A DNA stretch of 23,235 bases from contig JADZFF010000084.1 in assembly GCA_020850015.1 (NCBI GenBank), positions 1 through 23,235 of the forward strand, written 5' to 3'. This stretch comes from Bdellovibrionales bacterium (GTDB lineage Bacteria > Bdellovibrionota > UBA1018 > JADZFF01). The notes under the pieces are model-generated. The model saw nothing but the letters and a program-made list of their open reading frames with translations, made no database searches and was not told where the DNA came from. Numbering within the stretch: the stretch's first letter is position 1; each line of letters starts with the position of its first letter. This document shows, piece by piece, positions 4,375-17,095 of this stretch. The translations under genes were made by a program, and so were the position numbers.

Positions 4375-5160
4375 TCACTCCGCGGCGGGCATGGCGGCGG
4401 GGTCGCGGGCGCCGTCCCAGGGGATGGTGTCCGTGGCCGGCTCCAGGATCCTGAGCACCACGCGGCGGTTCCGCATCGTGGCGTTCGAATCCACCTTGCC
4501 GTCGTTCAGCCGCTCCGGGACCCAGGGCCTCGTGTCGCCATACCCGATCGCCAGAAGGTTTTCCGGATCGAATCCACGCTCCACGAAGAGACGTACCACG
4601 CGAGAGGCGCGCGCGGCGCTGAGCTCCCAGTTCGTGGGGTAAGGGCCGCTCAACACGGGCCTGCCGTCGGTGTGGCCCTCCACGACGATCCGGAATTTTT
4701 TCATCTCCATGTACTGGCGCTCGCTCAGGGCGTCCATGATCGAGCGCAGGACCGACCGGCCTTGCTCCGTGACGTTGGCGCTCAGCGTGTCGAAAAACAG
4801 CGTGCTGTGGAAGACCATGGCCACGCCCTCTGGCTCCGAATAGATCACGACGTCCTTCTCGACCCCGTTGCTCTCGACGAGTTGGGTAACAAACCGCGCG
4901 GTCTCCGCGCTCTCGCTCTTGTAGTCGCCGCCGAAGGCCTGGGCCACGGACTCGCGCACGGGCTCGAATTTCCGCTTGTCCAGCGTGGACATGCTGAACA
5001 TCATGATGAAGAAGCCGCAGAGAAGGGTCATCATGTCGGCATAGGAAACGAGCCAGTTCGACTCGTCGTCCGCCGCCTTCTTGGGCGGCTCCTGGCCCTT
5101 GCGGGCCTGGAGATCGTCCTGGATCGCCTGGGCTTTTTTCAGGAAGGAACTGATCGCCAT
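4375..5160 (-). CDS. motB: Flagellar-type stator subunit MotB (OmpA-like peptidoglycan-binding C-terminus)
   Basis: The N-terminal plug/TM region WLVSYADMMTLLCGFFIMMF carries the conserved channel Asp (D42, 5035-5037). The C-terminal OmpA-like domain reads RIVVEGHTDGRP...NWELSAARASRVVRLFVERG...AIGYGDTRP. Confidence 0.85.
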   Translation of the reverse strand: MAISSFLKKAQAIQDDLQARKGQEPPKKAADDESNWLVSYADMMTLLCGFFIMMFSMSTLDKRKFEPVRESVAQAFGGDYKSESAETARFVTQLVESNGVEKDVVIYSEPEGVAMVFHSTLFFDTLSANVTEQGRSVLRSIMDALSERQYMEMKKFRIVVEGHTDGRPVLSGPYPTNWELSAARASRVVRLFVERGFDPENLLAIGYGDTRPWVPERLNDGKVDSNATMRNRRVVLRILEPATDTIPWDGARDPAAMPAAE

Positions 5161-5182
5161 GAGCCCTCCCGCGCGCAGAGGC

Positions 5183-5968
5183 CTAGGCGGCCTTGCGCAC
5201 CACCCTGTCTTTCGGCAGCACGAACGAGTTGAGCGTCTCGCGCATGCTGATCGGGTTGGTCTGGGACCTCAGCATCACGCAGCCCTCCACCACCATCCGG
5301 CGCAGCGCCACCTCCTCCTCCGTCCGCACGGTGAGGTTCTCCGCAATCGGGAGAAACACGAAGTTCGCGATCGCGATCCCGTAGAGCGTGCCCACGAGAC
5401 CGATCGACATCGCCGGACCGATCATGGCCTCAGCGCCCGGTTTCCCGAGCTGCTGAAGAAGCGCGATCATTCCAAGAGTCGTGGCCAGAAGCCCGAACGC
5501 CGGCGGGAATTTACCGATCGCGCGGAACATGTTGGCCTCGTACATGTAGCGGTGCTCCACGGTCTTGATCCTCTGCTCAAGCGCGTCGCGGATCTCGCGC
5601 TCCGAAAGCACCCCGCCGGCCACGAGCGATACGGCCTCTCGGAGGAAAGGGTGCCTAATGCCGGGCAGCATGTCGTTCAGCGCCGTCACGCCGCCGATCG
5701 AGGCTTTCTTGTTGAGATCCAGGATCTGCTCGATCACCTGGTGATACTCGTTCCTGTGCGTGCCCAGAACCCTCAGAAAAAACACTTTCAAGAGGGCGAC
5801 CAGCTTCGAAACCGGGAACATGATCGACGCCGCGGCCATCGTGCCCCCGCAGACGATCACGACGCCGTGGAAGTTCAGGAAGAACTTGGCATCCATTCCA
5901 CTCTCGTGGATCGATGCGCCCACGATCCCGAGCCCAAGCAATACTCCGAAGAAGGACGAAAAATTCAT
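5183..5968 (-). CDS. motA: Flagellar-type stator subunit MotA/PomA (MotA/TolQ/ExbB proton-channel family)
   Basis: The 261-aa protein has two N-terminal TM helices, a long cytoplasmic loop, then FPPAFGLLATTLGMIALL and GPAMSIGLVGTLYGIAIANFVFLPIA (the conserved Pro-containing TM3/TM4). It sits directly upstream of motB with a 22-nt gap. Confidence 0.85.
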   Translation of the reverse strand: MNFSSFFGVLLGLGIVGASIHESGMDAKFFLNFHGVVIVCGGTMAAASIMFPVSKLVALLKVFFLRVLGTHRNEYHQVIEQILDLNKKASIGGVTALNDMLPGIRHPFLREAVSLVAGGVLSEREIRDALEQRIKTVEHRYMYEANMFRAIGKFPPAFGLLATTLGMIALLQQLGKPGAEAMIGPAMSIGLVGTLYGIAIANFVFLPIAENLTVRTEEEVALRRMVVEGCVMLRSQTNPISMRETLNSFVLPKDRVVRKAA

Positions 5969-5969
5969 A

Positions 5970-6494
5970 TCAGGCCGACTCCTTACGGCTCCGCATGCGG
6001 TCCACGGCGGTCTGCCAGAGCTGGTACTGACTCACGACGTAACTTCCGTCCAGCTCCCTCAGACGCATCACCAGATCCTTCACGCAACTCTCGTAGAAGC
6101 GCACCTTCCGATCTCCAGACTCGTTGAGAAAGTGCTTGAACGCCTCCTTCGAAATGAAGAAGGTCCTGCACCTGGACTTCGCCCGAACAGTCGCGGAACG
6201 CGGCTGGTCGTCCACGAGCGACATCTCCCCGAAGTAGCTTCCCGCCGCAAGCTCCCCCACATCGTAGATCTCCTCGGTGCTCGGGTTCTTCTTGAAAACA
6301 CCCACCGCCCCCTCGGCGATGAGGAAAAGGCCCCAGGAAAACTCGCCCTCGACCACGACGTTCGAATAGGCCTCGAAGTCCCTGGCATTTCCGAGCTTGA
6401 GGAGCGCATCAAGCTCGGGGTTCGTGAACGGTGCGAAAAGCTTGATCTCGCGGAGCCACTGCACAGAGGGTTGCGTGAAGTTCGGGTCTACCAT
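5970..6494 (-). CDS. Stand-alone cyclic-nucleotide-binding (CAP/CRP-effector-type) domain protein, no recognisable HTH
   Basis: The canonical phosphate-binding cassette FGEMSLVDDQPRSATVRA (6186-6233) retains the conserved Glu and Arg. It is preceded by the beta-roll segment GEFSWGLFLIAEGAVGVF. At 174 aa the protein is too short for a CRP-type DNA-binding domain. Its start overlaps the upstream stop (ATGGTAG), and its stop is 1 nt from the motA ATG. Confidence 0.85.
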   Translation of the reverse strand: MVDPNFTQPSVQWLREIKLFAPFTNPELDALLKLGNARDFEAYSNVVVEGEFSWGLFLIAEGAVGVFKKNPSTEEIYDVGELAAGSYFGEMSLVDDQPRSATVRAKSRCRTFFISKEAFKHFLNESGDRKVRFYESCVKDLVMRLRELDGSYVVSQYQLWQTAVDRMRSRKESA

Positions 6495-8881
6495 CCGGCC
6501 ACCTTCTTGATTTTGGCGAGCGTGCCATCAGAGCTCGGAGGTGGCGGAGCGGCCTGGAAAGCGTTGGGAGCGGTGCCGTCGCCGTATCCATTCGAGGCAA
6601 ACATGCGTTCGTTGGTTTCCACCAGGTTGATCTTGCCGTCCGTGGACATCTTCTTGATGCGGTTGAGGATCTTGCGCTCCACGCCCGCGTAGGAGTCGCG
6701 ACCCTGCACCTGCACGGCCTCGAGCTCCTCCTCGAGCTCCGCAACCAGGTCGCGCGGGCACTTGCTGAATACCATCTGCCGAATCTCGGCAGTGGTGCCC
6801 TTCAGGAACTGCAGGAGCTCGTCGTGCCTGAGGCTCAGCACCACCTCGAGCAGGTGCTGGTCGCGCAGGTAACGGAGCGTCTCCAAGCTGATCAGCTTGT
6901 TCTTCACGCTGTGCGCGCTGTCCGGGTTGCTGCTCTCCAGGTGACCCACGACGCTTTTCTGTACGTCGAGCCCGGTCTTTTCGAGCAGGCTCACGAGCAC
7001 GTCGGTTCCCGGCAGGGCCTCCGTGTTCAGGCGCGGGTTCTCGTGCCGCTTGCGCTTGAGGGCGCTCGCCACATTGCTGATGTAGTCCTTAGGCAGGTGG
7101 TCGATCCGCGAAAGCTCCGTGAGGATGCTGGTCTTCGTCGTCTCGTCGAGCCGGCGATACACGGCGTCGCGCTTCTGGGGATCGCACTGCGTGAGCACGA
7201 TCGCCTTCACGGTCAGGGACTCGTTGCGGACCAGCTCCAGGACCTGCATGTCGTCCATGTCCACCATGAACTCGAACAGGGCCGTGGATCGGTTACCCAT
7301 GACATAGAGCTTGGACGCGACCGTGATGTTGTGGAGCGCGCGCAGGAGCTCGAGCTTCTCCTCGTCGGAGAGCTTGATCGTGTTCCTGGCGTAGAACTCA
7401 AGAAGCTCGGTCACGTCGCGCTGCAGGCTCGGGTCGCGAAGCATGTCGACGACGATGCCTTCACCGAAGATTTCGATGTACTGCGCGGTGGCTTCCACGC
7501 CCTCCTCGGTGAGGATTCGGCTGAATACCTGCTTCGCCACCTTGGGATTCTCGGCGTAGACCTTAGAGAGGGATTCGATGAAGCCTTCGATCTCGTATCT
7601 GAGCTTCACGCGCGAGGCGCGGTCGTCGCTGCCGGACCCGGACGAGGCCTGAGCGGCGTTGCCGTTGCCCAGGGGGTCTGAGATCAGGTTCTGGAAAATT
7701 CGCTGCACCGGACCTGCGGCATCCGGGTTGCCGTGCGGGCGGTAGGCGGCGAGCGCAAGGAAGATCAGAAGAGAGAGAATCGCGCAGGCAAGCACGAGCC
7801 CGTAGACCTTGAACTTGTTGAGCTCGGCCTGGACGGCGTCGCCGCTCTCCACCCGCTCGATCTTCTCGAATCGCTCGAACTTCTCAGAGCGATTCGTATT
7901 GTCCTGTGAGGAATTGGACGAATTGTTCTGGGACACGGTCTGGTTCTTCTCGGAGCTCGAGAGGCTGCGCTGGTCGAGATACCTCGAACGCGCGTCCCGC
8001 GTGAGCTTCGATGCGGCGTCGGAGCCCCCCTGGCCCACCGAGGCGATACCCCGCGAGACACGGCTCCTGAACTCGGCCATGCGCTCGGGCGACGGGAACT
8101 GCACGGAGCTTCCGTCCACCTCGACGTTCTTGTACATCGCGTTGCGGAGACGGGCCATCTCGAGGATCGAGGAGCGCTCGTCGGGGAAGAGGCCGGAATC
8201 CATCAGGATCTTCGCGCCGATCTTCCGCACGCGCACGGCGGTGTCGCCGTCCTGGAGGAACTCTCCCGTGGATCCGTACTGGGCCTCCTCGAGGTTCACG
8301 GGATCCAGAGCCACGTCGAGGTCGCTCAGCAGGCAGCGGTCCGGGCAGTACTTGTTGAACAGCTCCTCGAGGTTGGAACGGATCTCTTTCGTGACCTTCT
8401 CGCGGATCTCGGCCACCTTGCGGCTGCTCGAGGCCGGCTGCGGGAAACGGATCACCTTCTGCTCGATCGTCACGGGGTAGGAGAGCGCATCGAGGTGCTG
8501 CTGCACGAGGTCCATCACCTTGCCACGCGACACTGGCCCAAGCATCTCGTCCACGAGGATCTTCAGAAGGACGCTCGACGCCCCGATCTCGAGGGATCTG
8601 CTCTGAATGGACTCATCGAAACCCGGCGCGATGGTGTCCGGAATCAGCGTGTCCACGGACGACTCCACCGCCAGTACCTTGCAGTGATCGGAGCAGTAGC
8701 GCTCCAGGAGCGGTTCCACCAACGAGCGAACCTGATTCTCCGCCTCGCGCTTCGCCCGATCCACGGAGCCGGGCCCCGGGGCGCCCGACGCGGGCTGGGA
8801 AAGGGCCGCGAGGGCCAGCGCCGTCCCGGCGAGGCCCGCGCACGCGGCCGTCAGTTTTCTGAAAGAGAAATCCGTTCTCAT
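6488..8881 (-). CDS. Bitopic inner-membrane protein: signal peptide + two periplasmic ring-building-motif-like repeats + TM helix + complete FliG-like (N/M/C) cytoplasmic module
   Basis: The cytoplasmic part (aa ~445-760 in ORF numbering, 6623-7570) is collinear with T. maritima FliG as recalled. FEFMVDMDDMQVLELVRNESLTVKAIVLTQCDP aligns with FSFVRDTDPVQLVNFLQSEHPQTIAVVLSYLDP. LRYLRDQHLLEVVLSLRHDELLQFLKGTTAEIRQMVFSKCPRDLVAELEEELE aligns with ILKLDDRSIQLVLREVDTRDLALALKGASDELKEKIFKNMSKRAAALLKDELE. The TM helix VYGLVLACAILSLLIFLALAAY lies at 7742-7807. The periplasmic repeats lie at ~8453-8755 and ~8093-8425. I prefer the start at Met8 (8881), which forms an ATGA overlap with the upstream stop; the longest ORF starts at 8902. 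Confidence 0.8.
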   Translation of the reverse strand: MRTDFSFRKLTAACAGLAGTALALAALSQPASGAPGPGSVDRAKREAENQVRSLVEPLLERYCSDHCKVLAVESSVDTLIPDTIAPGFDESIQSRSLEIGASSVLLKILVDEMLGPVSRGKVMDLVQQHLDALSYPVTIEQKVIRFPQPASSSRKVAEIREKVTKEIRSNLEELFNKYCPDRCLLSDLDVALDPVNLEEAQYGSTGEFLQDGDTAVRVRKIGAKILMDSGLFPDERSSILEMARLRNAMYKNVEVDGSSVQFPSPERMAEFRSRVSRGIASVGQGGSDAASKLTRDARSRYLDQRSLSSSEKNQTVSQNNSSNSSQDNTNRSEKFERFEKIERVESGDAVQAELNKFKVYGLVLACAILSLLIFLALAAYRPHGNPDAAGPVQRIFQNLISDPLGNGNAAQASSGSGSDDRASRVKLRYEIEGFIESLSKVYAENPKVAKQVFSRILTEEGVEATAQYIEIFGEGIVVDMLRDPSLQRDVTELLEFYARNTIKLSDEEKLELLRALHNITVASKLYVMGNRSTALFEFMVDMDDMQVLELVRNESLTVKAIVLTQCDPQKRDAVYRRLDETTKTSILTELSRIDHLPKDYISNVASALKRKRHENPRLNTEALPGTDVLVSLLEKTGLDVQKSVVGHLESSNPDSAHSVKNKLISLETLRYLRDQHLLEVVLSLRHDELLQFLKGTTAEIRQMVFSKCPRDLVAELEEELEAVQVQGRDSYAGVERKILNRIKKMSTDGKINLVETNERMFASNGYGDGTAPNAFQAAPPPPSSDGTLAKIKKVAGW

Positions 8882-9660
8882 TCGGAGCTTACCTTCCTCC
8901 ACTTGGACTGGTCTGACTTGCGCTCGAGGTAGGCCTTGAGCGCAAGGTTGTTCGGGTCGAGCTTCACGGACTGCTGCCAGGAACGGATCGCAAGATCGCG
9001 GTAGCCGAGTCGGTCGAGCAGGGTCCCGCGCATCTCGTAGAGGCGCGGGTCGGTTGGGAAGCTGCGCAAGAGCGCGTCGGTCTCGAGCAGACCCGCCTCG
9101 TAACGGCCCAGGCGGAAAAGCTGTTTCACCTTGTCGAGCGAGGCGAGATAGCTCGTGCCTCCGCGCGGGCCCGGGTCCTCCACGGGCCGAAGCCCGAGGC
9201 CCTGCTCAATCTCCTGCCGCTCGCGGTCGTCGGCCGGATTGCCCTGCGGCATGCGGTTCACGATCTCCAGATCCGTGGCCGTGGGTTTGCGCTCGGTGTA
9301 GCTCTGATCCATGGGTACGCCGTCGGCGTCGAGCGAGGCCGGCCTCCGGCCTTCGCCGCCTTCGATCGACTCGGCGAACTGAGGCGTGAGCGGCACCATG
9401 AAGTCCTGGAACTCCGGCTGGTCGCCCGGCAGCTCCACCTCGAGCGAGCGATGGCCCTTCTTGGTGCGGAACACCACGCGGTCCTGGCTCTGCTTCTGAA
9501 TCCACGCGGTATCGAGGAATGGGTTCTCGATCACTCCCTTCCCCGCCCCGCCATTCGGGGAGGGGCCGAGCCCGATCGATGAGCATCCGGAGGCGATGCT
9601 CAGTACGACCAGGGCGCAGAGGGTCACCGCCGCGGTCATCACCGCGTCCATCCGGGCCAT
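8878..9660 (-). CDS. TPR-repeat lipoprotein (periplasmic)
   Basis: MARMDAVMTAAVTLCALVVLSIASGC is a signal peptide ending in a lipobox-like ASGC. The C-terminus carries two TPR-like units: LGRYEAGLLETDALLRSFPTDPRLYEMRGTLLDRLGYRDLAIRSWQQSVKLDPNN. The start is uncertain. An alternative TTG at 9720 has GGGAG upstream but would overlap the preceding gene by 29 nt. Confidence 0.7.
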   Translation of the reverse strand: MARMDAVMTAAVTLCALVVLSIASGCSSIGLGPSPNGGAGKGVIENPFLDTAWIQKQSQDRVVFRTKKGHRSLEVELPGDQPEFQDFMVPLTPQFAESIEGGEGRRPASLDADGVPMDQSYTERKPTATDLEIVNRMPQGNPADDRERQEIEQGLGLRPVEDPGPRGGTSYLASLDKVKQLFRLGRYEAGLLETDALLRSFPTDPRLYEMRGTLLDRLGYRDLAIRSWQQSVKLDPNNLALKAYLERKSDQSKWRKVSSE

Positions 9661-9691
9661 ACGGGCCCGCCGGCGATCCTGATGAGCCCCC

Positions 9692-10882
9692 TCAGAAGAG
9701 GGCACTGATTCCCAAGCCAATCTCCACTCCCGTCACTGATCCCGCCTCGCTGCCGTCGATGAACCGGGTGGCCTTGGGCCTGAAACCCAGGTTTCCGTTC
9801 ACCGCCCAGTGCTTTCCCAATCGCCATTCGTAACCCGCGCGCACCAGTCCCCCGAGGAATCCCGAGGCATAGGTGCCCCCGATCCCGGCGAAGATGCTGT
9901 GCCTCACCTGATTGAAGTTCTCGAGCTCCCCGATGAGGTTCCACGCATGCACGAAGAGCAGCGTGAGGTTGAAGCTCGCGTAAAGCTTGTTGTCCGCGTC
10001 GGTGGTGTTTCCCACCAGCTGGTTCGCGTCGAGGAGGTAGTTCAACTCGAATCCGACTTCCTTCTTCCGGTTGTCGTACCGCTCCATCATCCGGAACCCG
10101 ATGCCCAAGGTGCTGGAGTACTCTTCCACGTCCCGCTCGAAGAAATAGTAGATGGTCGGCCGGTAGAGGATCGTGGGCACGTAGTCCACGCTCTTCCTCG
10201 CGTCCTCGACCTGCGAGTAGTCCACGCCCCGGCGGAAGGCGGCGGCGCGCGAGGTCTCGGAGTTGTAGCTCTTCGACCACACCACGGCCCCAGTCTCGGA
10301 GTCCGTGATGAACATCGAGAGCATCAGACCGGTGGGCTGGTAGGCGAAGGCCACGTCCATGAAGTTCGAGATCCCGCTCTGCGAGGCCAGACGTGAGAGC
10401 TCCTGCGGGTTGCTCGTGGGCGTGGTGATCACGACGTAGTCGTTGTTGAGGCGCGCCTGCTTGGACTTGCAGGGCAGGCACTGGATGATCTTGCTCTTCG
10501 TATTGTTTAGGATCCGCTCGGTGACGAGCAGCTCGAGGTGGCTCTTGAACGACGGCGGGATGTTCTCGCTCGTGGCCACGTTGCGGATCGAGAGGTTCTT
10601 CAGCCCCTCGACCTCGCCGTTCTTCAGGTCGTACTCGAAATCGGACACGACATCGTCGAGCACCTGGTAGAAATTGCGGACGCGCTCGTCTTCGCTTGCG
10701 GCCGGCGCGGGCGCCACCGGGCCCTGCTGAAGCGGAGCTTCGGCGGTAGTGGAGGCGGCCTGGCTGGACTTCACCGCATCTGCTGCCCCCGCAGAGGGCG
10801 GAAGGAGGGCGCAGAGGGCCATCAGCCCTCCCAAGACGCCCGAAAACTTTAACGTGATGCGGCAATGCACGTGATGCTTCAC
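9692..10882 (-). CDS. Outer-membrane protein: signal peptide, periplasmic N-terminal domain, C-terminal beta-barrel
   Basis: The GTG start is preceded by GGGGAGGAAGG. The signal peptide reads LKFSGVLGGLMALCALLPPSAGAADA. The C-terminal ~200 aa show alternating hydrophobic/aromatic strands (GFELNYLL, YASFNLTLLFVHAW, FAGIGGTYASGF, VRAGYEWRL, WAVNGNLGFR). The protein ends in ...GLGISALF, with the terminal Phe typical of BAM substrates. Confidence 0.7.
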   Translation of the reverse strand: MKHHVHCRITLKFSGVLGGLMALCALLPPSAGAADAVKSSQAASTTAEAPLQQGPVAPAPAASEDERVRNFYQVLDDVVSDFEYDLKNGEVEGLKNLSIRNVATSENIPPSFKSHLELLVTERILNNTKSKIIQCLPCKSKQARLNNDYVVITTPTSNPQELSRLASQSGISNFMDVAFAYQPTGLMLSMFITDSETGAVVWSKSYNSETSRAAAFRRGVDYSQVEDARKSVDYVPTILYRPTIYYFFERDVEEYSSTLGIGFRMMERYDNRKKEVGFELNYLLDANQLVGNTTDADNKLYASFNLTLLFVHAWNLIGELENFNQVRHSIFAGIGGTYASGFLGGLVRAGYEWRLGKHWAVNGNLGFRPKATRFIDGSEAGSVTGVEIGLGISALF

Positions 10883-10985: not shown

Positions 10986-11984
10986 ATGGGGGGAAGAACC
11001 ATAAAAACAGCCGCAATCCTGGGAAGCACCCTGCTTGCCGGCTGCTCTACGCCCCAGGGTGCCATTCCCCTGCCGGAGCTGCCCGAGGTGCCGGCCTACG
11101 TACGGGTTCCCCACCCCGGCAACGCCGATTTGAACGAGGTCCGGGCCCTATTCCAGAGCCCCGAGGCCCCAACTCCTGAAACCCTCGCCGCCTGCACCGC
11201 CGACTACGAGCGGATCCAGACGATGACCCAGAGCAAGGAAGACCACTCGCAGGCCGCGCAGGAGCTCGTGGGCCTGCGTCCCGAGGCCTATCACTGGTGC
11301 CTGTACTGGCAGTTCGTGCGCCTCGAGGACCGCATCAAGGAACTCCCGTACCATGACGAGCGCCAGGCCGAGGTCCTCAAGGCCTATGCCTTCATTGTTC
11401 CCGTGGCCCGCGCATTCCGCGAGGTCTACCAGGACTCGCGGTATTTGCGGATCGCCGCCTTCCGCTACCAGAAGGTCAGCGAACGCATCTTCTTCAGACA
11501 GGTGGCCCTGACCTCCGAAGGGGCACGTGACCTGCTGGCCGCCCAGTCGCTGGATCCGCACTCGGTGTGGCAAGCGATGAAAGACACTCAGTCTCCCACT
11601 TTGGAGCGGCTCGGGTTCGTGCCCCCGCCCTCCGAGGTGGACACCTTGATCAAAGAAGCCCCAGCCGGACCCGCCACGGCTGACGTGCCCGCTCCCGCGG
11701 GTGATGCGCCTCCGGCGGCCGCGACGGAACCCGCCGCTGCGCCCGCCGAAGCCGAAGTGGACTCGGAATGGGAGAAGGAGCTCCAGGCGATGGGGGACAA
11801 GGCAGAACCTCCAGCCGCGGCTCCGGTGGACCCCGCGGCGCCTCCCGCGCCCGAGGCCACCGCCCAGGCCGCGCCCCCACCGGCTGATCCGGCCCGCGCC
11901 CCCAGCGCGACGACCGAGCCCTCCCTCGAAGGAATCGAGGAGTTCTCGGCACCGACCGACCCTCCGGCAAACCCTGCCGATTGA
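10986..11984 (+). CDS. Lipoprotein with a Pro/Ala-rich C-terminal tail, family not recognised
   Basis: MGGRTIKTAAILGSTLLAGC carries a canonical lipobox, LLAGC. A globular ~200-aa region follows, then ~115 aa of PA-rich low complexity (PAGPATADVPAPAGDAPPAAATEPAAAP...). Confidence 0.7.
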   Translation: MGGRTIKTAAILGSTLLAGCSTPQGAIPLPELPEVPAYVRVPHPGNADLNEVRALFQSPEAPTPETLAACTADYERIQTMTQSKEDHSQAAQELVGLRPEAYHWCLYWQFVRLEDRIKELPYHDERQAEVLKAYAFIVPVARAFREVYQDSRYLRIAAFRYQKVSERIFFRQVALTSEGARDLLAAQSLDPHSVWQAMKDTQSPTLERLGFVPPPSEVDTLIKEAPAGPATADVPAPAGDAPPAAATEPAAAPAEAEVDSEWEKELQAMGDKAEPPAAAPVDPAAPPAPEATAQAAPPPADPARAPSATTEPSLEGIEEFSAPTDPPANPAD

Positions 11985-12026
11985 CCCCTCACGCGCCGCG
12001 CCTGACCCTCTGGATTGGGGGACTCT

Positions 12027-12998
12027 ATGCGCTGGAATTGCCCGCACTGCTCGATTGAACTGTACCTGGACGACGCTCGCGTCGGGAACGGCTGGTCCTT
12101 CGCGCGCTGCTACAGCTGCGCGGGATTCAGCCTGGTCCGCAAGTCCAACGTGAATACGATCCGGATCGACCAGGCCCCGACGCCGGAAACGATCCTTCAG
12201 CCCCAACCTTCCGTTCCGCGCGTCGAGGTCCCCGCGCAGGGGCCGGTGGCGAACGCGCTGACCCGCCTCGGCGTGGCTCAGAAGAACCTCGGAGAGGCCC
12301 AGACCTCAAGGCCGCAGGTGATCCCCGGCCGCCGCACTCAGCCGCCCGGCCAGACCACGGCGGCGGCTGCCGCCCCGGCCGCGAAAAACATCTTTGGCAC
12401 CCGAACTTTGCCTCAACCGCTTCCGCTCAACCCGCGCACCAGCTCCACTCCTAAGGCTGCGGCGGCCCGCCGTTCGCGCGGGCTGATTCCAGTCGTGCTC
12501 GGGATCATGGCCGTGCTGGTCACAGGCAGCGGCGCCTTCCTTTACGTCCAAGGGCAGAACATGTGGGACCGCGCCCGCGCGGAGCTGGGCCCGGACACCG
12601 ATGGCGTGAAGCTCGGCGCCTCGGCGCCTCAGCGCGCGGCCGGAGCCAAGGCCAGGAAGTCGCAACACAAGGACGCGACGATCTTCTCCGACCGCATCGG
12701 CCAGGGCGCCATGGCCCCCAACCGGGAAATGGGACCCGGAGCCGTGGTCCGCGCCGACGAAGAGACCGACGGGATCCCCGGCCGCATGGTGGTGCGGCCC
12801 ATCCAAAACGCGGTGAACCTGCGGATGGGCCCGGGGACGAAGTACCCCATCGTGGGCCAGGCCGACGCGACGATCACCTACACCGTGACGGAATGGCGCG
12901 AACAGTGGTTCCGCATCATCCCGAACACGGGGCCTGCGGAAGAGGCCTGGATCCGCAACGACTACGTGAACACGGTCAAAGAGACTTCGCAGGAGTGA
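12027..12998 (+). CDS. Zinc-ribbon (MJ0042-type CxxC...CxxC) - Pro-rich linker - TM - periplasmic SH3-like domain protein
   Basis: The N-terminus reads WNCPHCSIELYLDDARVGNGWSFARCYSCAGFSL (12039-12119). The TM helix GLIPVVLGIMAVLVTGSGAFLYV lies at 12480-12548. The C-terminal bacterial SH3 pattern is VNLRMGPGTKYPIVGQADATITYTVTEWREQWFRII...EAWIRNDYV (12786-12968). I prefer the ATG at 12027 (GGGGGA 4-5 nt upstream) over the TTG at 12015. Confidence 0.7.
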   Translation: MRWNCPHCSIELYLDDARVGNGWSFARCYSCAGFSLVRKSNVNTIRIDQAPTPETILQPQPSVPRVEVPAQGPVANALTRLGVAQKNLGEAQTSRPQVIPGRRTQPPGQTTAAAAAPAAKNIFGTRTLPQPLPLNPRTSSTPKAAAARRSRGLIPVVLGIMAVLVTGSGAFLYVQGQNMWDRARAELGPDTDGVKLGASAPQRAAGAKARKSQHKDATIFSDRIGQGAMAPNREMGPGAVVRADEETDGIPGRMVVRPIQNAVNLRMGPGTKYPIVGQADATITYTVTEWREQWFRIIPNTGPAEEAWIRNDYVNTVKETSQE

Positions 12999-14508
12999 TC
13001 GGCTCGCAGGCCCAGATCAGGATCTCCTTGGCCTTGAGGCCCCAGCGCAGGATCTCATTTCTCTGGGCCACGGCGCATCTCGCGTTCTTGAACCGGGGCT
13101 CGCCGGAGTACCGGTTGTCCGAGACGTAGAAGACGGAGCGCTCAAGCCGCGGCCAGGTTTGCGGGGTGTCGGCTGGCAAGTCGCCGTCCAGCCCGAAGAA
13201 CCGCGGCCATTCGTCCCAGTCGCGAATCGTCTTCGGAGAAAGCGTCGCTCGGTTGGGGTCGCCGCCTGCCCGCGCGATCGCCGCGGCCGCCTGCGAGGCC
13301 GTCTGGTAGCGGGATCCGATCACGGGCACCTCCGATTTCGCGAGCGGCTCGAGCGCCTGCCTCCAGCCGTAGAGGTCGTTCGTCACGTCCCACTTCGGGT
13401 CGGGCGCGTCCTTTCCCCGCGCGAGGATCGATGCCGCGGCCGTGAACACGGGCGCGTGGCATGCCAGGAGCATCAGCGCCACCAAGGGAAAACCCCAGGC
13501 CAGGTGCAGGCGCGCCAGGCTCCGCTCGCCCGTCGATGCAAGGCCCGAGGCCGCGCGGTAGCCGAGCTCCCAAGCCAGCGGAATCCACACCACCATCGGC
13601 CAGTGGGGCTTGAAGTCCGCGATCAGGGGCTGGAAAAAATAGACGAGCGCGGGCGGCGCCACCCAGATCGCCGTGAACCTCGCCACCTCGTTTCGACGGT
13701 CGATCCACAGCCTCCTCCCGAACCAGATCAGGTACAGCACGAGCGCCGGGCCGCCGAGCCCCAACTGACTTCCCCAGAAGCGCAGCCAGCGCAGGATGGA
13801 GAAACCGCCGGAATGGCGATCCTTCAATTGGTAAAGCAGCGACACCCACTCGTGTTCGAGATTCCAGGCCACCGTCGGCGCCGCGGCCACGAGCCCCCCC
13901 AGGAAGATCGCCGCGAGCGCGGGAACCCTCCGCTTGCGCGCAGGCCAGACGCAGACCGCGGCGGAAAGGGCCACGAGCACCCCGGAGTGCTTCGAGAGCG
14001 TGGCGATGAGCACGCCGGCGAAGAGCAGCGCCGCGCCGGGAAGGTTCTGGGCGGACACCCGCCAGGCACCCCAGAAGGCCAACGCCCAGCCCAGCAGGAG
14101 CGGAAGGTCCGGCACCATCATCCAGCCCGCGGCGCCGAAACCAGGAAGCGTGAGCAACATGGCACCGGCGGCCCAGGCGTAGTGCCGGTGCACGCCCAGG
14201 CTCAGAAGCCAGCGGGAGCCGATGAAGGCCAAGCCGCCCGCGCAAAGCGCGGCGGGGAGGCGGACCACGAAGGGGTGCGCGGAGCCGAACAGGGGGCGCA
14301 GGAGCCCCTCCGCGGCCGCGATCAGCCAGGCCACGAACGGAGGGTGGTAGGCGTAGCCCAGGGCGGGGCGCTGAGAGAGCACCCAGTAGTAGGCTTCGTC
14401 GTCGGAGAGCCCCAGCAGCGCGCCGTGCGCGGCGAAGAGAGCGAAGATCAGCGCGGCGATGCCCGCGCCCGCGGGAAGCCTGGGCTCAGTTGACTGAGCC
14501 ACCGTCAC
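12976..14508 (-). CDS. GT-C fold glycosyltransferase, family 39/83 (ArnT / PMT-like, polyprenyl-phosphate-sugar dependent)
   Basis: This is a polytopic 510-aa membrane protein. The first-loop motif LSDDEAYYWVLSQRPALGYAYHPPFVAWL carries the acidic DE typical of ArnT/PMT enzymes. There are ~10 or more hydrophobic helices and a soluble C-terminal domain. Confidence 0.75.
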   Translation of the reverse strand: MTVAQSTEPRLPAGAGIAALIFALFAAHGALLGLSDDEAYYWVLSQRPALGYAYHPPFVAWLIAAAEGLLRPLFGSAHPFVVRLPAALCAGGLAFIGSRWLLSLGVHRHYAWAAGAMLLTLPGFGAAGWMMVPDLPLLLGWALAFWGAWRVSAQNLPGAALLFAGVLIATLSKHSGVLVALSAAVCVWPARKRRVPALAAIFLGGLVAAAPTVAWNLEHEWVSLLYQLKDRHSGGFSILRWLRFWGSQLGLGGPALVLYLIWFGRRLWIDRRNEVARFTAIWVAPPALVYFFQPLIADFKPHWPMVVWIPLAWELGYRAASGLASTGERSLARLHLAWGFPLVALMLLACHAPVFTAAASILARGKDAPDPKWDVTNDLYGWRQALEPLAKSEVPVIGSRYQTASQAAAAIARAGGDPNRATLSPKTIRDWDEWPRFFGLDGDLPADTPQTWPRLERSVFYVSDNRYSGEPRFKNARCAVAQRNEILRWGLKAKEILIWACEPITPAKSL

Positions 14509-15520
14509 CGCCCTGCTCGCGGAACACGTAGGCGGGAACCTCGAACCGGATCACGGTGCTGATGCCTTCCTTGAACCGCTCCCAGTACCCGTGCGCGTGC
14601 CGTGCGTCCGCCGTGGGAAGCTCCAGGGTCAGCGTGGGAATCCCACGCTCCTGCCCGGCGTAGTTTCCGAGACTGCCGGGGAAAAACCCGCCATGCTGGG
14701 CTTTCACACGGGAGCGGAGCTCCAGGCACTTGTGCACGTACTCCTTGGGAAACTGCTTGAGGGCGATGGACATCGGGCCGTCGTAGTCCATGAAGTTCAG
14801 GGGCGAGTGCACACTCAACACTTTGTGGGGCTGCACCTCCTCGATGAGCCTCACCTGGAAGCGGGTCTCGGGCTCCGAGTTAGGCCCGGTGCCCGGATAG
14901 CGGCGCGGATTTCCGCCGAAGCGCTTGCGCCACTTCTGGAGCGCCTCGCGCGACCAGTCGGCCGTGCCGAAGTTGCGGTTCACGTCCACGCCGTTTGCGT
15001 TGGTGCGGGTGCGCCTCTCAGCGTAGAAGCCGTCCGGGTTCACGAGCGGAGCCACGATCACGCGAGCCTCCGTGAGGCTCTGCGGATGCTCTCCGAGCCA
15101 CTGCACGAGTTGGAGGGCCACGTAAAGAGGGGTGATCTCATCCGGGTGCACCATGGAGAAGATGAGCGTGGTGTTCTCCTCCGCCTGGGCGTTCCCGAAC
15201 TCCGCGTAAACCAGCGGGCGGCCCCGGACCGAGGTCCCGCCGAGCTTCCACCTGCGCCAGTCACAGGGGGGCAGGGTCCATCCCAGCCTGTTCACCTCGG
15301 CATCGAGGTCCGCGCACCAGCTCTTGAGCGCCGCTTCGTCGCTGGCGCGGCCGATTGCAGGAGCCGAACCCGTGGTCCCGGCCGTGGTCTCAGGCACCTC
15401 GTCCGTGGACGCGGCCTTCTTGCCGCCGAAAGCCCAGGCATCGCCCGCCGCGAGCGCGAACACACCCAGCCCGGCGGCCCCGGCGCAGAGTGCGGCTGCG
15501 ATGGTTCTCCCAAGGATCAT
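14486..15520 (-). CDS. Secreted M14-family zinc carboxypeptidase (murein peptide amidase/MpaA-like)
   Basis: The signal peptide is MILGRTIAAALCAGAAGLGVFALAAGDAWA. Zinc and catalytic motifs appear in M14 order: HPDE (HxxE), NPDGF, VDVNRNF, SEPET and a later His in LSVHSP. Confidence 0.8.
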   Translation of the reverse strand: MILGRTIAAALCAGAAGLGVFALAAGDAWAFGGKKAASTDEVPETTAGTTGSAPAIGRASDEAALKSWCADLDAEVNRLGWTLPPCDWRRWKLGGTSVRGRPLVYAEFGNAQAEENTTLIFSMVHPDEITPLYVALQLVQWLGEHPQSLTEARVIVAPLVNPDGFYAERRTRTNANGVDVNRNFGTADWSREALQKWRKRFGGNPRRYPGTGPNSEPETRFQVRLIEEVQPHKVLSVHSPLNFMDYDGPMSIALKQFPKEYVHKCLELRSRVKAQHGGFFPGSLGNYAGQERGIPTLTLELPTADARHAHGYWERFKEGISTVIRFEVPAYVFREQGGDGGSVN

Positions 15521-15538
15521 GGTTCCCGTCTCCGACGC

Positions 15539-16168
15539 CTAGGCCGTCTTTCCCGCGTTTCCGAGCTTCCGGCGCCCCAGATACCATTTTGCCACAAACA
15601 CGAGGATGATCGCCCCGATGAGGCCGAAGATCCCGAACTGCACCCTTTTGATCACCCGGATGATGGAATCCACCTCGGCCCCAAAATAAAAGACGGAATA
15701 AACGATGGCCGGAACGGAGAGCACGGCTGCCAGGCCGTCATAGGTGAAAAACACCCGGGGCGGCAGCTTCAGGGTGCCCGCCGAAAAATAAATGGCGGCG
15801 CGCATGCCCGGCATGAACCTGGCCATGAAGACGACCTTGTTCCCCCTCCGGTGCAGCTGACTCTGGACGTAATCCAGCCGCTCCGGGGAAAGCACCTTCC
15901 GGAACAACCACCTGTTCGCGAGCTTCCGGCCGTACTTGCGTCCCAACAGAAAAATGGCGCTGTCCCCGAACATCACGCCCGCGAAGCAGACAAAGATCGT
16001 CACCCAGACGTTGGCCTCGCCCATGTAGGCGATGTAGCCGGCGGCGAAGAGCGTGACGTCCTCCGGGATCGGGAGCCCGAATCCGCAGGCCAACAGAATG
16101 AGGAAGATCGACAGGTAGATGGCCAGGGGCCCGGAGAACTGAGTGAGCATGTCGACGAGCCAATCCAC
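15539..16168 (-). CDS. DedA family (SNARE-associated/VTT domain) inner-membrane protein
   Basis: The motifs FGLPIPEDVTLFAAGY, LGRKYGRKL and GNKVVFMARFMPGMRAAIYFSAG are the characteristic DedA motifs. Confidence 0.85.
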   Translation of the reverse strand: MDWLVDMLTQFSGPLAIYLSIFLILLACGFGLPIPEDVTLFAAGYIAYMGEANVWVTIFVCFAGVMFGDSAIFLLGRKYGRKLANRWLFRKVLSPERLDYVQSQLHRRGNKVVFMARFMPGMRAAIYFSAGTLKLPPRVFFTYDGLAAVLSVPAIVYSVFYFGAEVDSIIRVIKRVQFGIFGLIGAIILVFVAKWYLGRRKLGNAGKTA

Positions 16169-16174
16169 GTGCCG

Positions 16175-17095
16175 CTACTCCTCTTCCTTCCTGCTCAGGG
16201 GATGAGCCCCACGATACTGATCCAAAAGCTCCCCGAGGTCCACATGCGTATAACGCTGAGTGGTGGAAAGCCGCGAATGTCCTAGCATTTCCTGAATCGA
16301 CCTCAAATCTGCCCCAGACGAAAGCAGATGGGTAGCGAAACTGTGCCGCAGGCCATGAGGTGAGATTTTCCCGCCCAGCGCCGCCATGCCCTCGACGCTG
16401 GCCGCGAGCCGCACCAGATGCCGGGCCAGGATCCGAGCCACACTCCTAGAGGTCAGGCGCCCGCCCCGGGAGTTCGTGAACGCGGGTACCGCCCCGCGAT
16501 CCGCGAACGCGGCCTCCAAGGCCTCTCTCGCGGGCGGACCGAAGGGAACCTGGCGCACCTTGTTTCCCTTGCCCAGCACCCTCACCCAGCCCCCGGAGAG
16601 GTCGATATCGGTGCGGTCCAGGCCCACCGCCTCGCTCACCCGGAGGCCCGCGCCGTAAATCAGCTCGAAGAGCGCGCGGTCGCGCCGGCCCAGCGCCGTG
16701 GAGCTGTCGACGGTTCGCAACAGCTCCACGACCTCTTCAATCCGCAGATAACGGGGAAGCGGCCGTTGAACGCGGGGCGTGGGAACAAGCTTGCCGATCT
16801 CGCGCTCCATCGCGCCCTTGCGCTTGAGGTGCCGGAGAAATCCCCGAATGGCGGCCAGCCTTCGGCCGAGGGAGCTCCGATTGAGCCGGCCGTCGAGCCC
16901 CGCCAGGTAACGCCGCAAGAGCGCGGGCGTGAGCTCACGCTCCAGATCCTGGGCCAGTCGGATCCCCTCCGTCCGCTCCAGACTCGCTAGCCAGTCCTCG
17001 AGGTCGCTGCGGTAGGCGCGAAGGGTGTGCTCGCTCCAGGTCCGCCCAAAGCGCCCCTCCTCCAGATAGCCTTCCATGGCCTCGCTCAACCTCAT
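16175..17095 (-). CDS. xerC: Site-specific tyrosine recombinase, XerC-like
   Basis: The catalytic region reads LIYGAGLRVSEAVGLDRTDIDL...VLGKGNKVRQVPF...HGLRHSFATHLLSSGADLRSIQEMLGHSRLSTTQRYTHV (R..H-x-x-R..Y). YGAGLR and LRHSFATH resemble XerC more than XerD, but that distinction is not certain. Confidence 0.8.
   Translation of the reverse strand: MRLSEAMEGYLEEGRFGRTWSEHTLRAYRSDLEDWLASLERTEGIRLAQDLERELTPALLRRYLAGLDGRLNRSSLGRRLAAIRGFLRHLKRKGAMEREIGKLVPTPRVQRPLPRYLRIEEVVELLRTVDSSTALGRRDRALFELIYGAGLRVSEAVGLDRTDIDLSGGWVRVLGKGNKVRQVPFGPPAREALEAAFADRGAVPAFTNSRGGRLTSRSVARILARHLVRLAASVEGMAALGGKISPHGLRHSFATHLLSSGADLRSIQEMLGHSRLSTTQRYTHVDLGELLDQYRGAHPLSRKEEE

Follow-up and report, generated by a model that had tools for sequence, protein, structure and literature searches.

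To our knowledge, FliG is known only as the rotor of the flagellar motor and MotAB only as its stator. The closest published case found of a natural protein joining FliG to ring-building domains, compared by layout, is the FliF-FliG fusion of Chlamydiaceae (Bergeron 2016, PeerJ; PMC4768692). It has about 330 amino acids (aa), two domains of the ring-building motif (RBM) type, two transmembrane (TM) segments and a FliG_M-like tail; it has not been reported with MotAB and is thought to act with the injectisome (PMC4768692). MS-rings made of engineered FliF-FliG fusions of Salmonella and Vibrio have been purified and their structures solved (PDB 8z4d; PMC11481574), so that a covalent link between the two proteins is compatible with ring assembly. 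Apart from the engineered fusions and the chlamydial case, no description of the fusion family or operon treated here was found in the literature; a review of the E-ring deals with the periplasmic MgtE_N-like protein FlgY/FlbB and not with this fusion (PMC13023049). The fusion gene in question lies at 6488-8881 on the minus strand of a 23,235-nucleotide stretch of DNA from a Bdellovibrionales bacterium (GenBank assembly GCA_020850015.1, contig JADZFF010000084.1, positions 1 to 23,235), which as a whole is called the window.

Like the chlamydial protein, the window protein is one natural polypeptide with two RBM-like domains, a TM helix and a FliG-like cytoplasmic part, encoded outside a complete flagellar gene set. 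Unlike it, the family described here is 560-990 aa long and has FliG N, M and C domains, invariant CxxxC pairs and a long spacer, and it is encoded in an operon with MotAB, a tetratricopeptide repeat (TPR) lipoprotein and a presumed outer-membrane (OM) protein. The fusion is best described as a FliG-domain paralogue joined to SctJ/FliF-fold domains, being neither FliG nor FliF. More important than the fusion itself is that the operon is conserved and occurs in two predatory lineages. The chance that its six genes encode a self-contained envelope machine of flagellar motor parts, working apart from the flagellum, is judged to be a little better than even. The genes of the operon (4375-10882, minus strand), in which the fusion is third, are the following.

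9692..10882 (-), first gene: secreted protein of 396 aa with a signal peptide and C-terminus ...GISALF, conserved in 44 orthologues
8878..9720 (-): TPR lipoprotein of about 235-280 aa, with lipobox ...IASGC, invariant Cys46 and C-terminal TPRs
6488..8881 (-): fusion protein of 797 aa with signal peptide, two RBM-like repeats, spacer, TM helix and FliG N/M/C
5970..6494 (-): stand-alone cyclic-nucleotide-binding protein of 174 aa (Pfam cNMP_binding, E 7.6e-18)
5183..5968 (-): MotA/PomA paralogue of flagellar type, 261 aa, four TM helices (Pfam MotA_ExbB)
4375..5160 (-): MotB paralogue of 261 aa (Pfam MotB_plug 2e-18, OmpA 9e-15)

Overlapping stop and start codons within the operon point to translational coupling; the ATG of the cyclic-nucleotide-binding gene, for example, overlaps the stop codon of the fusion gene. 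Comparison of 76 related loci shows the same gene order wherever the contig reaches. MotA is present in 71 of these loci, MotB and the TPR protein in 68 each, the cyclic-nucleotide-binding protein in 65 and the 396-aa protein, directly upstream, in 63. A subclade of nine loci lacks the cyclic-nucleotide-binding gene only, and in these motA comes immediately after the fusion. These nine (L046, L047, L050, L053, L055, L056, L058, L066 and L073) have fusions with 41-45% identity to the window protein. A scan for promoters and terminators gave nothing above background.

The complete open reading frame of the fusion gene extends over 6488-8902 (-) and has 804 aa if counted from its GTG. The ATG at 8881 is the likely start because it shares the sequence ATGA with the stop codon of the preceding gene, because GGAGGA is found 14 nucleotides upstream and because the resulting 797-aa product is identical to NCBI protein IT285_06935 of a Bdellovibrionales metagenome-assembled genome (MAG). 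Residues of the fusion are numbered from this ATG. A word-indexed search rendered 210 homologous proteins, the best 120 of which are 731-839 aa long and 47-100% identical over their full length. A sequence-only reading of the window had proposed a natural fusion and had named a frameshift or an assembly error joining two genes as a finding that would refute it. That the gene is such an artefact, or a functionless decaying relic, is so improbable as to be negligible, since the unbroken architecture is common to more than 200 proteins of 41-80% identity from independent assemblies and many residues are invariant, all four cysteines of the periplasmic part among them. The artefact reading was rejected on these grounds, and the GC content at third codon positions (0.87), similar to that of the adjacent genes, argues against it too. 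The parts of the protein are distributed as follows.

8783..8881 (-): signal peptide of the Sec type (residues 1 to about 33); its n-region is charged, its core is hydrophobic, and it has AxA-like sites
8441..8770 (-): periplasmic repeat 1, residues 38-147 (AlphaFold2 model, invariant columns, hhalign against repeat 2, Foldseek matches to FliF/SctD)
8681-8695 (-): repeat 1 cysteines C63-x3-C67 in YCSDHC (residues 62-67)
8087..8434 (-): periplasmic repeat 2, residues 150-265 (AlphaFold2 model, invariant columns, hhalign, Foldseek)
8333-8347 (-): repeat 2 cysteines C179-x3-C183 in YCPDRC (residues 178-183)
7886..8047 (-): low-complexity, disordered periplasmic spacer rich in S, N and Q, residues about 279-332, with a predicted local distance difference test score (pLDDT) below 50 and no sequence conservation
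7823..7885 (-): charged juxtamembrane segment ERFExxEKIERVExGDAVQAELxKFKVYG, residues 333-353, strongly conserved in the homologues
7742..7822 (-): single TM helix, residues about 354-380 (hydropathy scan 354-383; AlphaFold2 helix 347-379)
7289..7630 (-): FliG_N-like helical domain with the N-M connecting helix, residues 418-531 (Foldseek over full-length FliG)
7037..7273 (-): FliG middle domain, residues about 537-615 (Pfam FliG_M, alignment to 1lkv, family conservation)
6623..6943 (-): FliG C-terminal domain, residues 647-753 (Pfam FliG_C, alignments, conservation)
6695-6763 (-): torque-helix equivalent, residues 707-729 (alignments, conservation)
6491..6511 (-): conserved extreme C-terminus IKKVAGW, a consensus of the homologues that follows a variable disordered tail

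The cytoplasmic half is recognised as FliG both by sequence and by fold. Pfam FliG_M (PF14841) matches residues 546-615 (E 8.6e-8) and FliG_C (PF01706) residues 647-753 (E 6.7e-16), both above their gathering scores. The NCBIfam FliG model (TIGR00207) is aligned from position 107 to 328 of 338 with 56.9 bits against an equivalog cut-off of 226.7, so the protein does not qualify as a FliG orthologue. A phmmer search finds the FliG structures of Thermotoga maritima and Aquifex aeolicus at about 1e-12, as does the family profile; the alignment to A. aeolicus FliG begins at its residue 50, which corresponds to residue 479 of the query. The AlphaFold2 model of the fusion, built on 52 homologues, has a mean pLDDT of 76 and values above 85 across most folded parts, and its 13 best Foldseek matches in the PDB are all FliG, including full-length 3hjl (326 columns, 321 residues), 8wo5, 8umd and 8vib. 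The collinearity with full-length FliG claimed in the sequence-only reading is thereby supported from end to end (3hjl, 8wo5, 8umd), with the N domain seen at the level of fold only, as Pfam FliG_N has no match at residues 415-532. The same reading had named MgtE_N as the family that might fit the cytoplasmic part better. FliG matches far better, and MgtE_N was rejected because its E-value of 0.045 is below threshold compared with 6.7e-16 for FliG_C.

The functional motifs of FliG were scored across 65 family members, and canonical residue numbers of FliG follow the E. coli protein.

EHPQ position, ESLT at 7211-7222 (-), aligned to T. maritima FliG: E554 invariant, S555 in 64 of 65 members, 556 variable, T557 invariant
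R160 position: E589, invariant
Gly-Gly linker position: P624-G625, invariant
MFXF hinge position: L-V-S-x
K264 position: K694, conserved
R281 position: D/E711, with K/R710 one residue before
D288 position: E/D718, conserved
D289 position: E719, conserved
R297 position: S/N/G727, with R728 one residue after

Unlike FliG, the fusion family has thus lost the EHPQR, GG and MFXF motifs, and the predicted loss of the FliM-docking EHPQ is seen not only in the window protein (ESLT, residues 554-557) but family-wide as E-S-x-T. The sequence ELSRIDxLP is invariant at residues 589-597. The statement that the torque-helix charges are kept stands for the equivalents of K264, D288 and D289. It does not stand for R281 and R297, where the arginines or other basic residues are found one position off; the R...EE...R pattern is present in the fusion, out of exact register with E. 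coli FliG. The segment 6695-6763 had also been called the last helix, which is not correct since two more helices come after it. At the far C-terminus, IKKVAGW might be a docking peptide.

The N-terminus of the fusion looks like a cleavable Sec signal peptide, as had been suggested. Its charged n-region, hydrophobic core and AxA-like sites recur at the N-termini of the homologues, and the AlphaFold2 helix spans residues 7-26. A cleavable signal peptide would give an SctJ-like topology of signal, two RBMs and one TM helix, unlike the two-TM topology of FliF. The two repeats of about 100 residues predicted from the sequence were found where they had been placed. Each is modelled as an alpha-beta-beta-alpha-beta unit, with helix 38-62, strands 67-78 and 99-111, helix 116-130 and strand 137-144 in repeat 1, and helix 150-178, strands 183-195 and 214-228, helix 233-246 and strand 253-260 in repeat 2. 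Both have pLDDT above 90 in the full model, and residues 35-285 modelled alone have a pLDDT of 88. By hhalign the repeats prove to be homologues (probability 96.5%, E 9.5e-10, 103 columns) and thus a tandem duplication. The Y-C-x-D-x-C motifs of the sequence-only reading are real in both repeats (YCSDHC and YCPDRC), and its K-I-L-x-D strands are beta-2 of each unit. The C-x3-C of each repeat sits where alpha-1 meets beta-1, and C63, C67, C179 and C183 are invariant in the 52 homologues and in all divergent relatives examined. P86-G87-F88 and the terminal F146-P147 are invariant in repeat 1. In repeat 2 a conserved 18-residue insertion (N196..E207) separates beta-1 from beta-2, and F262-P263 is invariant at the end.

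When the isolated periplasmic model is compared with solved structures by Foldseek, the Salmonella FliF ring is the best match (7bk0_B, E 4.9e-6; 6scn_A, 2.4e-5), with SctD/YscD 4alz (E 4.3e-4) and the Vibrio MS-ring chain 8z5v_A as further matches. Generic two-layer alpha/beta folds such as the MamM C-terminal domain, OsmC and KH-like folds are lower in the list, and with the full-length model FliF ranks after FliG. The comparison with FliF, SctJ and FliG that had been proposed as a check thus points to the FliF MS-ring and SctD for the repeats and to full-length FliG for the cytoplasmic part. Sequence models do not detect FliF: Pfam searches of the periplasmic part at E up to 10 gave noise only and no family, and the periplasmic family profile had no true match in the PDB, only a chance hit to a serpin. 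Of the proposal of FliF-like ring-building repeats, fold, topology and architecture therefore agree and similarity in sequence to FliF does not. The RBM is the best-supported fold reading of these repeats, and the fold does not prove homology or ring formation.

Compared with the MS-ring/C-ring core, the order of parts (RBMs, TM helix, FliG) is the same, FliG M and C are homologous and the partner is a flagellar-type MotAB. FliF itself differs in having three RBMs and not two, and the fusion lacks the third RBM and beta-collar, has short insertions between beta-1 and beta-2, shows no sequence similarity to FliF and has a putatively cleaved signal peptide in the place of TM1. The layout of signal peptide, two RBM-fold domains and C-terminal TM helix is that of SctJ (EscJ/PrgK), and YscD makes SctD another close match in fold. 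Unlike SctJ and SctD, the fusion has no lipobox, its repeats, at 110 aa and with long strands, exceed theirs greatly in size, and it continues into a cytoplasmic FliG domain.

Between repeat 2 and the TM helix there is a disordered spacer of 50-65 residues and then the conserved charged juxtamembrane segment, in which E339, E342-E345 and G347-A349 are invariant. Relatives in Bradymonadales have a Pro-rich, TonB-like spacer at the equivalent place. The single TM helix that had been assigned to 7742-7807 (residues 359-380) is supported by both the hydropathy scan and the AlphaFold2 model.

The stator of the operon is of the flagellar type. MotA matches the NCBIfam MotP, MotA and PomA models over its full length with E 1e-44 to 1e-39, below equivalog cut-offs, and aligns end to end with MotA and PomA structures in the PDB (E 1e-33 to 1e-28); ExbB and TolQ are not among its NCBIfam and PDB matches. 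The pore prolines are kept, and the motifs PPAFG and FLPIA are invariant or present. MotB has a TM helix with the conserved channel Asp (SYADMMTLL), a plug and an OmpA-type peptidoglycan-binding domain, and NWELSxAR and NRRVV are conserved. From these features the stator is apparently functional. The equivalent of MotA R90 is Ser/Ala and that of E98 is Asn, with the conserved K87-K88 and E/D99 adjoining. This loss, together with the shift of the arginines in FliG, suggests that the rotor-stator interface has been remodelled on both sides, and the remodelled interface would keep opposite charges near the canonical positions. When MotA and torque-helix charges are compared across Bdellovibrionota, locus L078 and Bradymonadales, the patterns differ and no simple compensatory rule is seen. 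The earlier suggestion that the fusion engages MotA gains support from evidence not cited at the time, namely a dedicated, translationally coupled motA-motB pair in essentially every locus. MotA of the window has a one-residue Gly insertion (G92, 5693-5695) in the rotor-facing loop, which is absent from 65 of 66 family members.

The 396-aa protein had no match in Pfam, NCBIfam or the PDB. It has a periplasmic N-domain with an invariant CxxC (C134/C137) and a beta-barrel-like C-terminal half whose last residue is an invariant Phe, features from which it is presumed to be an outer-membrane component. Paired cysteines are thus found in a second operon component too, at positions 134-137 of this protein. 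The Pfam TPR_2 and TPR_14 matches of the TPR lipoprotein are weak and below the gathering score, and its real start is probably downstream of 9720. In the cyclic-nucleotide-binding protein the phosphate-binding cassette FGEMSL..PRSATV is intact and invariant in 60 orthologues, and the protein has a conserved C-terminal motif of its own, RLRxL...YVxSQYQLW.

When a single genome was scanned for each species, 73 loci came to light, almost all of them in MAGs labelled Bdellovibrionota, Oligoflexia or Bacteriovoracaceae; one carrier, 'Bdellovibrionota bacterium FG-2', appears to be an isolate. The periplasmic profile rendered 152 hits among 1.84 billion representative proteins. About 95 of these are below 1e-10 and comprise full-length fusions with two repeats (720-990 aa) and fragments truncated by contig ends. 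A second tier consists of 560-620-aa proteins that match repeat 1 only. When 61 long hits of the 152 were scanned, FliG_C was found in 51, FliG_M in 31 and MgtE_N in 24, the sole other Pfam match was one TonB_N, and no FliF was found among them. The CxxxC is kept in all wider-family members examined. In databases the proteins are named 'hypothetical protein', 'FliG C-terminal domain-containing protein' or, automatically, 'FliG'.

The one-repeat form occurs in Bradymonadales, for example in the cultured Lujinxingia vulgaris (FRC98_01300). The fusions of L. vulgaris, of a related MAG and of locus L078 are each accompanied by MotA, MotB and homologues of the 396-aa and TPR proteins (profile hidden Markov models, E 1e-17 to 1e-49); homologues of the 396-aa protein were found in clusters L078, L081 and L082. 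The five-gene core thus consists of the barrel-like protein, the TPR protein, MotA, MotB and the fusion, with the order MotA-MotB-fusion in these relatives, and in L. vulgaris a homologous cyclic-nucleotide-binding protein is encoded near the cluster. The L. vulgaris cluster (L081, 1090-15710, GCA_007997015.1) has the core inside 14 genes on the same strand, 13 of them close-packed, with the cyclic-nucleotide-binding gene ending the run after a gap of 148 nucleotides. Most genes of this run have no family match (products of 540, 233, 658, 329, 362, 182, 284 and 162 aa), and a Pfam search of the extra Lujinxingia operon genes gave no informative match. L078 (8001-10961) encodes a 986-aa variant with an Asn/Ser-rich N-terminal extension of 150 residues after the signal peptide, in the order motA-motB-fusion. 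A published comparison of Bradymonadales genomes scored Bradymonas sediminis as deficient in the flagellar gene set and listed gliding for two of the genera (PMC7188933).

There is no other flagellar gene within the window, and no genes for an export gate, rod, FliM, FliN or a type III secretion system nearby. In the relative L001, flagellin genes lie 8 kb from the operon on the same contig, so organisms with this type of fusion very probably have a normal motor too. Upstream of the operon, the window encodes a zinc-ribbon/TM/SH3_3 protein (12015-12998, plus strand) and a 510-aa multi-TM protein (12976-14508, minus strand). The same two genes come directly after motB in most related loci (e.g. 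L001 14725-17868), and their upstream position in the window and in its closest relative L004 indicates a local rearrangement. Both proteins may be further parts of the system. A divergent 332-aa lipoprotein (10986-11984, plus strand) with an LLAGC lipobox and an Ala/Pro-rich tail adjoins the operon in 53 of 76 loci and has no family match. The block at 14486-17095 (-) encodes an M14 carboxypeptidase, a VTT/DedA-type protein and an XerC/D-like recombinase; it is kept near the operon in distant relatives too, which argues for vertical inheritance of the region.

In the proposed machine, a signal peptide would direct the export of the fusion and a single TM helix would anchor it. The FliG N/M/C domains of the fusion would form the surface acted on by the co-encoded, peptidoglycan-anchored motor of MotA5B2 type. 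The RBM-like domains, each presumably stapled by a CxxxC pair and held off the inner membrane by the long spacer, would oligomerise like the rings of SctJ or FliF. MotAB would then turn or pull the oligomer, and the TPR lipoprotein and the barrel-like OM protein would receive the motion by way of the spacer and the RBM-like domains. Possible outputs are surface motility, contact with prey and work on the OM. With the FliM-docking surface and the switching hinges lost, the device would have no switch. The cyclic-nucleotide-binding protein is a likely input for turning it on and off or for braking it, much as flagellar motors are braked by YcgR-type proteins. Regulation by cyclic nucleotides is inferred, as are ring formation, rotation, contact with the OM proteins and independence from the flagellum. 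The exclusive pairing of the periplasmic part with FliG domains in the 61 long hits counts in favour of a dedicated machine.

Several points weigh against the proposed machine. The ring and its rotation are assumptions. The alpha-beta-beta-alpha-beta fold is a common one, and since its two domains are placed differently relative to each other, the periplasmic part has low TM-scores against FliF (0.26-0.28). A disordered spacer of about 65 residues is a poor torque shaft. The canonical pairing of MotA R90/E98 with FliG R281/R297 is absent at the aligned positions, and the acidic cluster of the torque helix is not conserved in the relatives from Bradymonadales and L078. The main rival is a linear force transducer of the TonB/TolA kind, in which MotA rotation tugs the FliG domains of a single fusion or a few, the TM helix and the long spacer transmit the force, and the periplasmic domains that receive it grip the OM protein. 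ExbBD-TonB and TolQR-TolA are 5:2 motors that act in this way, an OM barrel-like partner is always co-encoded, and the long low-complexity spacer is universal, Pro-rich in Bradymonadales and with a weak TonB_N match in one member. ExbBD-TonB, TolQR-TolA, GldLM, AglRQS-Glt and ZorAB all resemble the present operon in combining a motor of the MotA/MotB family with a periplasm-spanning partner and OM components. The motor found here, unlike theirs, is of the flagellar type, its MotA having the large cytoplasmic torque domain and not the ExbB/TolQ form, and the partner is FliG, which we otherwise know in flagella only. Against a linear transducer, the proteins that the periplasmic domains match best in fold are ring-forming ones, and FliG forms rings in every context known to us. 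A linear transducer is accordingly regarded as unlikely, while still the alternative to be taken most seriously.

The fusion might instead be a genuine part of the flagellum, as the MS/C-ring itself or as an accessory ring or stator-docking platform around a sheathed motor. All recognisable parts are flagellar, automatic annotation gives FliG, Bdellovibrionota are flagellated and L001 has flagellin genes close to the operon. TPR proteins, moreover, act as stator scaffolds in some flagellar motors (PMC13023049). A flagellar role is made less likely by the missing FliM-binding site, the missing third RBM and beta-collar for an export gate and the missing flagellar neighbours; the low score against the FliG equivalog model points the same way. 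It is also made less likely by the flagellin of L001, which suggests a separate motor, and by the same core operon in L. vulgaris, whose order Bradymonadales includes gliders and the flagellum-deficient B. sediminis (PMC7188933). On balance a flagellar part is improbable, more so than a linear transducer. Far less probable still is a Zorya-like or other MotAB-based anti-phage defence. MotB does match ZorB models and the cyclic-nucleotide-binding domain matches Pycsar effector models, and ZorAB is homologous to MotAB. PADLOC, however, gave no ZorA or effector match, MotA has no ZorA tail, effector genes are absent and the chromosomal setting (M14 peptidase, VTT, XerC/D-like and GidA-family PF01134 genes) is conserved phylum-wide and is not a variable island. 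The defence reading was rejected on the PADLOC result and because the similarity of MotB to ZorB is only generic.

The self-contained envelope machine, if it exists, would add a member to the machines driven by 5:2 ion motors. The operon lacks an export apparatus, a rod, a hook, a filament and a switch, and as a natural minimal rotor and stator it would allow torque generation to be studied without the switch complex. It bears on the origin or re-use of the flagellar motor core and could be a minimal core of rotor and stator such as has been postulated for the pre-flagellar ancestor. A flagellar-type rotor-stator pair appears to have been re-used in a new architecture, with a substantial chance that this is a new kind of machine. 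The fullest version of this idea is a non-flagellar envelope machine, rotary or force-transducing, of a categorically new kind, in which a MotAB-driven SctJ/FliF-like-FliG ring, gated by cyclic nucleotides and coupled to an OM complex, powers gliding, prey attachment or invasion, or OM remodelling; it is put forward tentatively, as somewhat less than an even chance. So far the genes have been found in Bdellovibrionota and Bradymonadia, both of which include predatory bacteria. The operon may explain an unassigned motility or predation function in both, and the cultured carrier L. vulgaris makes the question directly testable.

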